Positions 5,668 through 10,607 of a DNA stretch of 12,551 nt are shown piece after piece. The number at the start of each line of letters is the position of its first letter. Within the stretch, counting starts at the first letter, position 1. The stretch covers positions 74,760 through 87,310 of the forward strand of contig CP054849.1 of NCBI GenBank assembly GCA_044358425.1. The letters run 5' to 3'. Both the position numbers and the translations under genes were made by a program. The notes beneath the pieces were generated by a model. That model saw only the letters and a program-made list of their open reading frames with translations, did no database searches and was not told the origin of the DNA. Origin of the DNA: Marine Group I thaumarchaeote. GTDB taxonomy: Archaea; Thermoproteota; Nitrososphaeria; Nitrososphaerales; Nitrosopumilaceae.

Positions 5668-5985
5668 GGTAGTAGATCCGCTGGTTCCAGTCTAGACGAA
5701 TAGCCCCATTTCAAGGCATACAAGATCCGCCACGTAGACGAGGAAGCGTGGATGCTCCACCTTAGGATTGCTCCCTCCCGGACCTCATCCCTTTCGATAG
5801 TTCGGTCTTAGAAGTTATTCCTTCGAATATTTCTAGTCCTGCAACCACCCGCCTCGGCGTGATTTCATTTCCGCACACCAAGCGGGAATTACCCATCTAG
5901 AGATTTACCCAACAGTTGCTGATCTCTGCATATAGCCGGTTTCAGAATAGGGCACGGCTGGCACCCCAATCCTACCTACTACCGC
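5668..5985 (-). ncRNA. ffs: Archaeal signal recognition particle (7S) RNA
   Basis: GC-rich segment of about 316 nt. Terminal helix GGTAGTAG/CTACTACC (5983-5976 with 5675-5668). Helix 8 reads GGAT-GAGG-TCC-GGGA-GGG-AGCA-ATCC (SRP54 site, GNRA loop, about 5790-5765). Helix 6 reads CTAGAAATATTC-GAAG-GAATAACTTCTA (GNAR loop). Alu-like 5' hairpins are present. Confidence 0.95.
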
Positions 5986-6004: not shown

Positions 6005-6016
6005 TTATATTTGCAT
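6005..6016 (-). promoter_or_regulatory. TATA box for SRP RNA
   Basis: Minus strand ATGCAAATATAA lies about 20-30 nt upstream of the predicted SRP RNA 5' end. Confidence 0.6.
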
Positions 6017-6936
6017 TAGGTTTGATTTGATTTTAATTTCAAAACCATAGTGCATACTGAGCATATGTTCCCTGTACATTCAGAACCACATTTTTTACAG
6101 TTTGTTTTATTTTTAGAGTTTGAATCAGAGTTTTTCATTACTTCTGAAACTTTGATTATTGATTGATACAAGTTATTTTTAATTCCACTTCGTTGATTTT
6201 CTAATGAATTTAAAAATTCTCGAATGTCAGTTCTTATACCTTCATTCATGTGAGGACATGGTTCAGATTGAAATGGTAGATTATTTGTAAATGCATAAAA
6301 AACAATTTCAGATTCGTAGATTTCACAAAATGGTTTTATTTTTCTTAAAGAATTTGTAGCTGTATCTGGATTCATCCAACCAACTTTAGTTGTATCTCCT
6401 GAAAGCATATTTATCACAAAAGTTTGTAATGTGTCGTCTAAATTATGCCCTGTCGCAATTAGATCTGCTCCAATATCTTTTGCTGCATAATCCATTGCAC
6501 GTCTTCTAAATGTTCCACACATTGAACATGATGATGTTTTTTCATTTTCTCGCAAGTCTAATGCCTCATCAAGTGTTAATTCAAAAAGATCCTTGTAAGA
6601 ATATATTTTATATTCTACATTTAATTCGTTGCATACTTTTTTCACAATCTCTAATGCTTCATTCCTGTAACCTGGAATACCTTCATCTATTGTAATCACT
6701 TTAATTCTAAAACTGTGAGTTAATGACATTTCATGAATAACCTTTAACAATGCAAGTGAATCTTTACCTCCTGAAACAGCTACGGCAACTAATTCATTAT
6801 GTTTTATCATTTTATATTTTGAAATTGTTTTGGCTGTCTTTTTTACAATGGATTTTGAAAAACATTGTGAACATAATTTCTCTCCAGAATATTTTCTTGT
6901 ATATGCTGGAGGATTTTCACATCTATCGCATGTCAT
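6016..6936 (-). CDS. ncsA: tRNA 2-thiolation protein, NcsA/TtuA/Ctu1 (TIGR00269-type) family
   Basis: PP-loop SGGKDS; N-terminal CDRC/CSQC and C-terminal CKKC/CSVC zinc fingers; central CSMC..RR; ATGHNLDD; later CPH cysteine. Confidence 0.88.
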   Translation of the reverse strand: MTCDRCENPPAYTRKYSGEKLCSQCFSKSIVKKTAKTISKYKMIKHNELVAVAVSGGKDSLALLKVIHEMSLTHSFRIKVITIDEGIPGYRNEALEIVKKVCNELNVEYKIYSYKDLFELTLDEALDLRENEKTSSCSMCGTFRRRAMDYAAKDIGADLIATGHNLDDTLQTFVINMLSGDTTKVGWMNPDTATNSLRKIKPFCEIYESEIVFYAFTNNLPFQSEPCPHMNEGIRTDIREFLNSLENQRSGIKNNLYQSIIKVSEVMKNSDSNSKNKTNCKKCGSECTGNICSVCTMVLKLKSNQT

Positions 6937-8217: not shown

Positions 8218-8529
8218 ATGAAACCAGTGGTTATTGTATCAACATATCCTAATAAAAAATCAATTTTAAAAATTGCTAATGAACTTGTTAAAAATAAGAC
8301 TATAGCATGTGTTAATATTTCAAAAATTGATTCAGTATATTCCTGGAATGGAAAAATTCAAAATTCACCAGAATATATTGCAATATTCAAAACTGTAACA
8401 AAAAATAAAATTAAACTCAAAAAAGCAATTGAAGAAACTCATCCATATGATGTTCCTGAAATTGCAGAAATTGATGTTACCTCAATAAATAAATCATATT
8501 TGAATTGGTTGATAGAATCAACAAATTAA
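8218..8529 (+). CDS. cutA: Divalent-cation tolerance protein CutA
   Basis: ACVN, SVYSWNGKI, HPYDVPEI and YLNWL motifs. Confidence 0.95.
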   Translation: MKPVVIVSTYPNKKSILKIANELVKNKTIACVNISKIDSVYSWNGKIQNSPEYIAIFKTVTKNKIKLKKAIEETHPYDVPEIAEIDVTSINKSYLNWLIESTN

Positions 8530-9569
8530 GTCTCTAATGAATATCGTAACAAAGAAACTATTCCACCTAAACCTGTAACTCTTAATCCGATATCTGTAGA
8601 TGAATCAACACTGTAAATTTTAACCCCTTTATTTTCTACATCATTTAGGAAATCCATTATTTCTTGTTCATTATTGTCTTGAATTATTTTATCTGAAAAT
8701 ACTAATGACTCCACAGCTCCAATTTGATTGGCATTTATTGTTTCATTATACCCCATTGTGAATTTTTTACTTTTTTTATTTGCAAGAATCATAATTTCAT
8801 CAATTATTGCTGCAGCTTTTGCTAATTTACTATCTGACATTATTTCATGCATTGTTTGAGATTTTGTAAATGTGTAAATACCATCTTCTCCCCCTGAATC
8901 TACTCCATCAACAACTTGAATCTTATATTTTTGTGATTTTTGTAAATGATTTGCAAATCTTTTTTTTGTTTCACCTGGACCAAAAATTATTATCGTGTCT
9001 CCCTCTTTAAAAATAGAATTCATTGCCTGCTGTACATGCTCAAAGAATTTTTCAATTTTAAAATTAGTTTTGTATCTCTTACCTCCAGATCCAGAATACA
9101 TATTTGGCATAAATTCTAAATGGGTTCCTCTTAATCTGGCAATTCCACAGTCCGCAGTATCAATTGCAATTAGTACAAAACTGACTTGATTATTACTTGA
9201 TTTCAAAAGTTTTTTCTCAACTGGCAACCATTTTTTCTTTGAAATTGTAATTCCGTCATTTAGTTCTAAAATAAATGAATGATGTGAACCGTGTGGTACT
9301 GATTCGTTACTTGATTCAGAAATGATTCCACTAATTCTTAGTTTATCTAAAACTTCATCAAGAGAAATTTTTTCCACAGTTAATGCAATTCTAATTTTGA
9401 TTCTTTCACCTTTGTCTGGTCTAGCATATTCTTTATCTTGTTTTAGAACTCGTGTAGTATCACCAATTACTTTGTCATTTTCTCGAATTATTCGTCGTAA
9501 ATTCAATAAATCTTCTGAATCTTCGGGAATTACTGAAATTAAATTCTCATCTATTGTTTTTGTAATCAT
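8526..9569 (-). CDS. pelA: Pelota/Dom34 ribosome-rescue (no-go decay) factor
   Basis: PEDSEDLLNLRRII...GDTTR, LRISGII, GSHHSF, GPGETK and C-terminal GLGGIVSLLRY; eRF1-like three-domain size (347 aa). Confidence 0.93.
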   Translation of the reverse strand: MITKTIDENLISVIPEDSEDLLNLRRIIRENDKVIGDTTRVLKQDKEYARPDKGERIKIRIALTVEKISLDEVLDKLRISGIISESSNESVPHGSHHSFILELNDGITISKKKWLPVEKKLLKSSNNQVSFVLIAIDTADCGIARLRGTHLEFMPNMYSGSGGKRYKTNFKIEKFFEHVQQAMNSIFKEGDTIIIFGPGETKKRFANHLQKSQKYKIQVVDGVDSGGEDGIYTFTKSQTMHEIMSDSKLAKAAAIIDEIMILANKKSKKFTMGYNETINANQIGAVESLVFSDKIIQDNNEQEIMDFLNDVENKGVKIYSVDSSTDIGLRVTGLGGIVSLLRYSLET

Positions 9570-9601: not shown

Positions 9602-10042
9602 TTAGTTTGTAGTTTCAGTTGTTTTCTCTTCTTGTGATTTTTTCTTTAGATAATTTTCAACCCAATCTAAAGTAAGAACACCTGCTTCTGCTAGATTTGT
9701 TAAAGAATTTGGAGAAGCTTCTCCTGTTACTTTGCCTTCCATTCTTCTAATTTGTCTCCATTTGAGTGATGTATTTCCACTTTTTGAATTATAGATTATT
9801 CCAAGAACGTCTCTTGCATTCATAAATTTGATATCTCTGATTTTTTTCAATGTTACTTTATCTGCTGCTTCTACGTATATTGCACCCAAATTATCTTCTC
9901 TTTCTGCAAATACCTCTGAATCTTCTAAATAATTTCTTGGAGCATAAGATTTACACGTACTAGAAATGATAAATCTTCTAAAACTTTCCAATGTTGCAGG
10001 AGTGCTAATCGTGACCATTTTTTTTAACTTACTATTTGCCAT
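9602..10042 (-). CDS. Hypothetical protein (146 aa)
   Basis: ORF fills the gap, with codon usage like the neighbouring genes; no motif recognised. The start may be the second Met (MVTIST). Confidence 0.8.
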   Translation of the reverse strand: MANSKLKKMVTISTPATLESFRRFIISSTCKSYAPRNYLEDSEVFAEREDNLGAIYVEAADKVTLKKIRDIKFMNARDVLGIIYNSKSGNTSLKWRQIRRMEGKVTGEASPNSLTNLAEAGVLTLDWVENYLKKKSQEEKTTETTN

Positions 10043-10092
10043 TTATCAAGCTTCTTGAAAGACTCAAAAGGAATATCTCTAAAAACTGCCTA

Positions 10093-10150
10093 CAGGCTAT
10101 GATGTTCCTATCCCTCTGATTAATGATGAGGATCTTGAGTTCTGAGCCTG
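10093..10150 (+). ncRNA. Box C/D methylation-guide sRNA
   Basis: Terminal stem CAGGC (10093-10097)/GCCTG (10146-10150); box C ATGATGT (10099-10105); guide TCCTATCCCT; box D' CTGA (10116-10119); box C' ATGATGA (10123-10129); 12-nt guide GGATCTTGAGTT; box D CTGA (10142-10145). Intergenic, 58 nt, canonical archaeal geometry. Confidence 0.9.
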
Positions 10151-10187
10151 CTTCATGATTTTAATTGGTAATGAATTTTGAAACATT

Positions 10188-10607
10188 ATGAAATCATTAA
10201 CTAAACATCTTACATTTAATATTAAATCTCGAAGAGGGTTTGTCAATATTACACCTGATGTTAGAAAATTAATAGACCAAAGTAAAGTCCAAGAAGGACT
10301 TTGTCTTGTTAATGCTATGCATATCACTGCAAGTGTTTTTATCAACGATAATGAGGATGGATTACTTCATGATTATGAAAAATGGTTAGAAGAATTAGCA
10401 CCTCATGAACCAATTGAACAATACAAACACAATGATACTGGAGAAGATAATGCTGATGCACATCTAAAAAGACAAGTAATGGGACGTGAAGTAGTTGTTG
10501 CAATTACTAATGGTGATCTAGATTTTGGTCCATGGGAACAAATTTTCTACGGGGAATTTGATGGTAAAAGACCAAAAAGAGTTTTAGTTAAAATTATTGG
10601 TGAATAG
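10188..10607 (+). CDS. yjbQ: YjbQ/UPF0047 family protein (secondary thiamine-phosphate synthase-like)
   Basis: [26 protein letters not shown] and [19 protein letters not shown] motifs. Confidence 0.93.

Follow-up and report, generated by a model that had tools for sequence, protein, structure and literature searches.

The sRNA sR47 of Pyrococcus abyssi is described as directing methylation of C34 in tRNA-Leu(CAA) in vitro by means of the sequence upstream of its box D (PMC3413156, PMC5558902), and its published substrate, a 22-mer, contains GACUCAAGAUCC (PMC3413156). According to PMC7994747, four Pyrococcus sRNAs target position 34 of tRNA-Leu(CAA) and tRNA-Leu(UAA) and also of tRNA-Met and of tRNA-Trp, and the same source, citing Lui et al. 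2018, states that in sRNAs targeting tRNAs one guide typically works and the other is an orphan. C34 of tRNA-Leu(CAA) is also among the sites that Wolff et al. give as predicted for P. furiosus, and of the predicted sites they state that those other than Cm34, Am38 and m2,2Gm26 "in some tRNAs" went undetected in their set (PMC7668247). As these sources present it, the guiding of Cm34 by a box C/D sRNA is not a new function: Pyrococcus was predicted to have it, and P. abyssi sR47 carried it out in a reconstituted system in vitro (PMC3413156, PMC7994747, PMC7668247). Our literature search found no description of C/D sRNAs for Nitrosopumilus or ammonia-oxidising archaea.

Here we describe a candidate RNA of this kind encoded in the window, by which we mean the whole stretch of 12,551 nucleotides analysed, in a 1.36 Mb genome of low GC content (26.6%). 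As read from its sequence, the window RNA is a counterpart of Pyrococcus sR47, the same target being due to common descent or to convergence. We put the probability that it guides Cm34 formation in tRNA-Leu(CAA) at about 0.85. It would add an unannotated RNA gene and a predicted Cm34 in tRNA-Leu(CAA) to ammonia-oxidising archaea, while the understanding of how C/D RNPs work is unchanged by it.

Layout of the sRNA locus

The sRNA lies on the plus strand at 10093-10150 of the window, in a 145-nt gap between a minus-strand ORF that ends at 10042 and a plus-strand ORF that starts at 10188. It begins with the 5' strand of a terminal stem, CAGGC (10093..10097, pairing with 10146-10150), and an unpaired U read from the sequence (10098), followed by box C, AUGAUGU (10099..10105), a 6/7 match to RUGAUGA in which the final base is U and not A. 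A 10-nt D' spacer, UCCUAUCCCU (10106..10115), with a conserved 3' core, (U)AUCCCU, leads to box D', CUGA (10116..10119), which is UUGA or AUGA in most relatives. The D'-C' loop, UUA (10120..10122), has 3 nt, a K-loop type of spacing, and differs in sequence among relatives; box C', AUGAUGA (10123..10129), was read from the sequence and is aligned by the Rfam model. The 12-nt D guide, GGAUCUUGAGUU (10130..10141), is antisense to G30-C41 of the spliced tRNA-Leu(CAA) and is followed by box D, CUGA (10142..10145), invariant in an alignment of 48 sequences, and by the 3' strand of the stem, GCCUG (10146..10150), which pairs with 10093-10097. Direct reading thus bears out the stem-C-D'-C'-D-stem layout of the original prediction in its coordinates and boxes, and its count of G10137 as the fifth base upstream of box D is correct. 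A search of the window for tRNAs returned none.

A regular expression for the C-D'-C'-D arrangement matched only once in the 1,357,507-base genome, at the window locus. The same four-box layout matched once in total in 30 simulated genomes, generated by a first-order Markov model with the dinucleotide make-up of the real genome, which corresponds to about 0.03 chance matches per genome, and a flanking stem of at least 4 bp was absent from that one match.

In Rfam, the locus scores 34.9 bits (E = 3e-4) against RF00095, snoPyro_CD, a generic Pyrococcus C/D model, and at E < 0.1 it is the sole match of this model in the whole genome. The alignment is full-length and takes in four boxes and the stem, but the score is under the gathering score of 45, so that the RNA lies outside the family though similar to it. 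Several other Rfam C/D families align end to end over the same span, all under their own cut-offs, and no dedicated Rfam family for a C34 guide matched the locus. Fifteen relatives from other lineages also stay under the snoPyro_CD gathering score (best 44.4), and a search of four Thermococcus-type loci with this model gave no match at E <= 0.01. Since no Rfam model reaches its cut-off at the locus or in the 15 relatives, standard pipelines miss this sRNA gene, as had been expected of them when it was first proposed.

The predicted tRNA-Leu(CAA) target and its intron

The exact 11-mer ACTCAAGATCC occurs in the genome in a sole copy, which is the antisense of the sRNA itself. The tRNA-Leu(CAA) gene, found by ARAGORN on the minus strand (G000:C1:957957-958060, G000 being the host genome), does not contain it because an 18-nt intron splits the target. 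Comparison with two other tRNA-Leu genes and with relatives places this intron directly after G37, and its removal restores the long variable arm. The intron called by ARAGORN (23 nt at position 41) was rejected because the long variable arm, present in the other two tRNA-Leu genes, would be lost with it.

After splicing the anticodon arm reads AGGGA-CUCAAGA-UCCCU, and the arm from A31 to C41 that had been proposed as the target is restored exactly as written. All 12 bases of the guide pair with the spliced tRNA, in 11 consecutive Watson-Crick pairs and a terminal G30.U pair, and C34 faces G10137 at the fifth position upstream of box D, the arrangement that had been predicted. A search of the tRNAs of the genome for the target 11-mer had been proposed as a check; it fails on genomic DNA, where only the antisense copy is found, and succeeds on the spliced tRNA. 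Anyone looking for exact matches among genomic tRNA genes would wrongly discard the prediction, the target being whole only after splicing.

A published prediction rule asks for at least nine Watson-Crick pairs with a stable RNA and for Watson-Crick pairing around the +5 site (PMC4644070), and the D guide duplex has at least nine such pairs in succession, including the fifth position. The next best match of the D guide to a stable RNA is 8 bp (rRNA, 36 tRNAs, tRNA-Leu(UAA) and SRP RNA were compared), and a search for an rRNA target of this guide found none.

All 22 same-genus tRNA-Leu(CAA) genes have an intron of 14-18 nt after G37, and all 22 yield GACUCAAGAUCC after splicing. The intron starts with AUC in each of the 28 intron-bearing tRNA-Leu(CAA) genes examined (22 from the same genus, four from other families of the order, and those of two genomes titled Cenarchaeum and Nitrosotenuis), copying A38-U39-C40; one genome examined has a tRNA-Leu(CAA) gene without an intron. 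Because the first bases of the intron (AUC, then C or U) repeat A38-U39-C40(-C41), the guide duplex survives in the unspliced precursor, with 12 of 12 bases paired (10 Watson-Crick and two G.U), and the intron preserves this duplex in every intron-bearing tRNA-Leu(CAA) gene examined. No such repeat of positions 38-40 was seen by eye in the other intron-bearing tRNAs on the ARAGORN list for this genome.

The AUC start of the intron is consistent with methylation before splicing. If the guide does read the precursor, its duplex would span the 5' splice site, so that methylation of the wobble base would be ordered before splicing and could compete with it. Common ancestry with the intron of tRNA-Leu(UAA), which likewise starts with AUC, would also explain this start. 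As a separate observation, bases 2-5 of the intron, UCCU or UCCA, covary with an AGGA or UGGA close to its 3' end (loci L053-L079, L212 and L215), forming a small hairpin, and reading of the folds showed no textbook bulge-helix-bulge in the intron region.

tRNA-Leu(UAA) as a possible second target

ARAGORN found only 36 tRNA genes in the genome. It missed a tRNA-Leu(UAA)-like gene on the plus strand (G000:C1:~223300-223422) that apparently has more than one intron and consists, around the anticodon, of the arm GGACUUAAG, then an intron, then AUCCUG; other tRNA genes were probably missed for the same reason.

It is conceivable, if rather improbable, that the same RNP also serves tRNA-Leu(UAA), in which case Cm34 and 2'-O-methyl U34 would come from one guide. 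TrmL is reported to act on both leucine isoacceptors in E. coli (PMC4033218), and Pyrococcus is described as having a separate sRNA for tRNA-Leu(UAA) (PMC7994747). The spliced arm, GACUUAAGAUCC, differs from the guide target at position 34 only, and no separate guide with GAUCUUAAGU beside a box D was found in the genome. The base to be methylated would, however, lie in a G.U pair, and substrates with a G.U pair at the target base are generally poor ones for C/D RNPs. The prediction rule wants Watson-Crick pairs around the +5 site (PMC4644070).

Conservation and distribution

By blastn the sRNA was found in 21 of 24 same-genus genomes (E <= 1.7e-9), the three negative genomes being 62, 78 and 96% complete. 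In a second draw of genomes, all at least 90% complete, a C'-guide-D pattern matched in 29 of 29 further genomes of the genus and in 60 of 64 of the family (one of the 60, G228, is unpublished), and a reversed control pattern had no match in 201 genomes. In each of the 22 genus loci the same two genes flank the sRNA. Of these loci, 21 have the same D guide 12-mer and one departs from it at the first base; variation is seen in the D'-C' loop, in the D' spacer towards its 5' end and in the flanks.

An alignment of 48 related sequences, with members picked by genus or by record title, shows UGAUG of box C and CUGA of box D to be invariant. Its six aligned terminal-stem pairs are 95.1% paired, and in five of the six both partners have changed; none of 500 shuffles did as well, and slid partners pair at 16-42%. 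The stem has 5 bp in the window RNA and 6 bp in most relatives, and is mostly absent in lineages with Thermococcus, Thermoplasmat- or Micrarchaeota titles.

A search of one genome per prokaryotic species with the pattern TGA-N4-GATCTTGAGT-N-CTGA gave at least 120 matches. Among the matches listed, 112 of 120 are archaeal by record title and eight are bacterial, a box C lies at the right distance in 105 of the 112 archaeal and in one of the eight bacterial records (a spurious case), and the records closest to the window RNA are titled Nitrosopumilus or Nitrosopumilaceae, in keeping with the archaeal SRP RNA of the window and pointing to an ammonia-oxidiser-like host of the Nitrosopumilaceae type. 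The archaeal groups among the matches listed are Nitrosopumilaceae, other Nitrososphaerota, Bathyarchaeia, Marsarchaeota, Thermoproteales and Micrarchaeota, together with Thermoplasmatota, Thermococcus, DHVE2 and the Njord-, Heimdall- and Hermod-archaeota. A guide reading the same 10-12 bases is present, again among the matches listed, in records titled as Asgard archaea, DPANN (Micrarchaeota), Thermoproteota, Thermoplasmatota and Thermococci.

In two sister families of the same order, the C'-guide-D pattern was found in 0 of 63 (f15) and 0 of 33 (f10) genomes, and a looser pattern applied to five genomes of these families gave nothing C/D-like, only non-C/D contexts. The anticodon arm of tRNA-Leu(CAA) is unchanged in one genome of each (G038 of f15 and G033 of f10). 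In these close relatives the guide could be dispensable and lost, or replaced by another enzyme. The wider pattern may be of interest for the evolution of RNA-guided modification, one guide being common to archaeal phyla and yet not found in the searched genomes of two sister families with the same arm. We would offer as a speculation, to which we attach a low probability, that the guide may belong to the most ancient and most widely retained RNA guides of Archaea, that it acts on the precursor in intron-bearing lineages, and that the D' core serves as an internal stand-in for the target.

We consider 10093-10150 (+) almost certainly to be a genuine archaeal box C/D sRNA of a predicted length of about 58 nt. 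The contrary view, that it is a chance look-alike or a dead relic without function, could draw on the snoPyro_CD score under the cut-off and on the prediction having been made from sequence. It would have to account for a layout expected only about 0.03 times per genome, a guide that is invariant while its flanks drift, compensatory changes in the stem, a perfect target in the same genome and a family found across archaeal phyla, and we regard it as extremely improbable.

The D' spacer

The D' spacer has 10 nt in the window RNA and in nearly all Nitrosopumilaceae-titled sequences, and the D guide has 12; spacers of 10 to 12 nt are typical of guides (PMC4644070). Among Nitrosopumilaceae-titled records the 3' core, (U)AUCCCU, hardly changes, while the bases 5' to it vary. 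No target of at least 9 bp was found for the spacer in a genome-wide search for complements (exact or with one or two mismatches) or with G.U-tolerant patterns, nor in the rRNA operon, the 36 ARAGORN tRNAs and tRNA-Leu(UAA), the SRP RNA, or tRNA-like regions anchored on the T loop. The best matches were 7 bp in domain V of 23S rRNA and 8 bp near the 3' end of 23S rRNA, the latter falling in the part of the spacer that is variable among relatives.

The match in domain V raises the question of whether the D' spacer could be a working second guide for 23S rRNA, in which UAUCCCU would pair with AGGGAUA in the universal stretch CAGGGAUAACAGG. This stretch is present at G000:C1:525165, and the stretch of the spacer conserved in Nitrosopumilaceae-titled records coincides exactly with what would pair, its 5' bases being free to vary. 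The fifth base of the spacer would fall on the A after GGG in domain V, presumably at about A2448 in E. coli numbering. The duplex, however, is of only 7 bp (5-8 in other genera), against a minimum of nine Watson-Crick pairs for prediction (PMC4644070), and by simple arithmetic 4.6 kb of rRNA should contain a 7-mer about 0.3 times by chance. The spacer moreover has 10 nt and not 12, box D' is UUGA or AUGA in most relatives, and other lineages have quite different D' cores despite the universal rRNA stretch, so that we judge a 23S guide to be very unlikely.

Three further partners were considered and rejected. The core equals A38-U43 of tRNA-Leu, and pairing with A27-A31 was discarded on account of the Cenarchaeum-titled genome, in which the stem is AAGGA/UCCUU and the spacer still AUCCC. 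A two-part target formed by AGGG of the 5' exon and AUAGG at the 3' end of the intron showed no compensating change (G005, G006, G009 and G018); the AGGA or UGGA of the intron covaries instead with the intron's own UCCU or UCCA. A general role as a second tRNA-Leu guide was dropped as well, since in Thermoplasmatales the match of the spacer is confined to GGGUUC of the T arm and in Bathyarchaeota the spacer matches nothing in tRNA-Leu(CAA).

Other lineages have conserved D' cores of their own (loci L083-L202). The core is CUCUAGCCC or CUCUGGCCC in records titled Bathyarchaeia, Conexivisphaerales and Nitrosothermus, and ACGAACCCUU, antisense to GGGUUCG of the tRNA T arm, in Thermoplasmat-titled records. 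In Thermococcus it is CUCGGCAG, and in one Thermococcus genome the spacer with this core pairs with U9-G15 of that genome's tRNA-Leu(CAA) through seven Watson-Crick pairs and a G.U pair to U8; its fifth position, in this one genome examined, falls on G10.

A further possible role for the D' core could be that of an internal partner, with AUC(C)CU(C) pairing with the end of box C' and the first four bases of the D guide (GA-GGAU). Such a helix would extend the weak internal K-loop, or would mask the guide until the substrate arrives, and the core would resemble A38-U43 of the tRNA because both complement the same guide bases. The helix is drawn in the minimum-energy and centroid folds, 90.6% of its cells are paired in the 48 sequences (45-60% with a slid partner), and 2 to 13 of 500 shuffles reach the observed measures. 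There is nevertheless almost no covariation, with just two cells changed on both sides, and the first guide base changes without its partner following (eight unpaired cells). The structure was also derived from the same sequence, which inflates the slid-partner control, and the folding z-score is only -1.76. We think this role unlikely, in either of its two forms. The conserved D' core nonetheless counts against the Cm34-guide account to the extent that a single-guide reading does not explain it.

RNP proteins and proposed mechanism

The genome encodes fibrillarin (PF01269, 302.3 bits), Nop5 (PF01798, 230.1 bits) and L7Ae (PF01248, 91.6 bits), all above the Pfam cut-offs. Nop5 and fibrillarin are read in one frame on the minus strand (G000:C1:292299-294035; locus L019:415-2571). 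A 718-aa Nop5-fibrillarin fusion was rejected as probably not real, because the frame runs only through a run of N (five X); the fibrillarin open frame in 37 relatives has 223-371 aa. Between the domains of Nop and fibrillarin, immediately upstream of the N run, lie GGRRE and GGRFDDRRRE repeats reminiscent of the glycine-arginine-rich tracts in eukaryotic fibrillarin, and many same-genus fibrillarin frames exceed the domain by 50-150 aa.

From what is known of the family, the C/D kink-turn and the C'/D' K-loop would be occupied by two copies of L7Ae before Nop5 and fibrillarin join. The 12-nt guide upstream of box D would pair with G30-C41 of tRNA-Leu(CAA), as the unspliced precursor, the spliced tRNA or both, placing G10137 opposite C34. 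Fibrillarin would methylate the 2'-OH of C34, and the resulting Cm34 may stiffen the wobble base for the reading of UUG. The RNA would act as a single guide: on its D' side the spacer has 10 nt, the D' box is often weak and no convincing target was found.

The locus is spanned by assembled contigs of RNA libraries (X1 record 1, 9950-10213, with 4 differences; X7 record 16, 9968-10350, with 22 differences), and those of X2 and X4 end inside it. The contigs over the locus extend into both neighbouring genes and could represent DNA carry-over, and the ends, strand and size of a transcript are not readable from them. Contigs cannot reveal a small RNA, and we therefore take these as no evidence either way on expression.

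Neighbouring genes and other elements

The 146-aa protein encoded at 9602-10042 (-) is without a match in Pfam or NCBIfam. The Atlas cluster nearest to it is named "hypothetical protein" and is 100% archaeal, with Nitrososphaerota the commonest among the few members of known phylum. The 5' end of its gene adjoins the sRNA in all 22 genus loci, and in loci from four other families (L043, L044, L045 and L047) the protein is likewise encoded no more than a few hundred bases away from the blastn match; in L043 the sRNA has the opposite orientation, and in L045 no guide-plus-box-D pattern was recognised near it. Two translation-related neighbours, both on the minus strand, are a PP-loop or TtuA-like tRNA thiolation protein (6016-6936) and a protein with three eRF1 domains, of the Pelota or aRF1 type (8526-9569). 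The window also holds an archaeal SRP RNA at 5670-5981 (-), at 102.3 bits against a gathering score of 96.5.

Outside the window, a second box C/D sRNA lies on the plus strand (G000:C1:387280-387340; locus L258:81-141). It has a 7-bp terminal stem, box C UGAUGA, box D' AUGA, box C' UGAUUA and box D CUGA. Its D' guide, GACGGUGGCUGU, does not vary across 20 of 24 same-genus genomes and two further families, its D guide being variable, and the D' guide forms 9 bp (eight Watson-Crick and one G.U) with UCAGCCGCCG in the 530-loop region of 16S rRNA.

Comparison with known systems

The protein enzymes TrmL (YibK), Trm7-Trm734 and FTSJ1 have the same chemical outcome at position 34 as that predicted here. 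TrmL is listed as forming Cm34 and cmnm5Um34 in tRNA-Leu isoacceptors and Trm7-Trm734 as forming Nm34, and the comparison with TrmL and Trm7 made in the original prediction agrees with this review table (PMC4033218). TrmL and Trm7 are stand-alone proteins, of the SPOUT fold and the RrmJ-type fold, that recognise the tRNA themselves, whereas in the window system specificity would reside in a 12-nt RNA guide and the predicted catalyst is fibrillarin.

In Haloferax volcanii, as given in PMC4033218 and PMC7994747, sR-tMet and the guide in the tRNA-Trp intron (Cm34, Um39) are likewise box C/D RNPs acting on a wobble C34 with an intron beside the anticodon. Their tRNAs are different ones, and the Trp guide is carried within the intron of the very tRNA it targets; the window sRNA gene, by contrast, is separate from its target and 870 kb away. 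The title of the H. volcanii sR-tMet paper reportedly names precursor tRNA as the substrate; here a precursor substrate is suggested only by the AUC start of the intron.

The Thermococcus versions share the C'-guide-D pattern (L091, L098, L173 and L192). They have no flanking stem, a D' spacer of 11-12 nt with another conserved core and an 8-nt D'-C' spacer, in contrast to the 5-6-bp terminal stem, 10-nt D' spacer and 3-nt D'-C' loop of the window RNA, and beyond boxes and guide the Thermococcus and Nitrosopumilaceae versions have nothing alignable in common, with different D' cores, different spacers and different stems. An intron lies across the target in tRNA-Leu(CAA) here but is absent from the Thermococcus gene examined.

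Like P. abyssi sR47, the window RNA is a box C/D RNA with its guide upstream of box D, the same 12-nt target and C34 as the predicted target base. No 16S target was found for it, and sR47 has none either (PMC5558902). The hosts differ, that of sR47 being a hyperthermophile and that of the window RNA a low-GC, marine-type, Nitrosopumilaceae-like archaeon.
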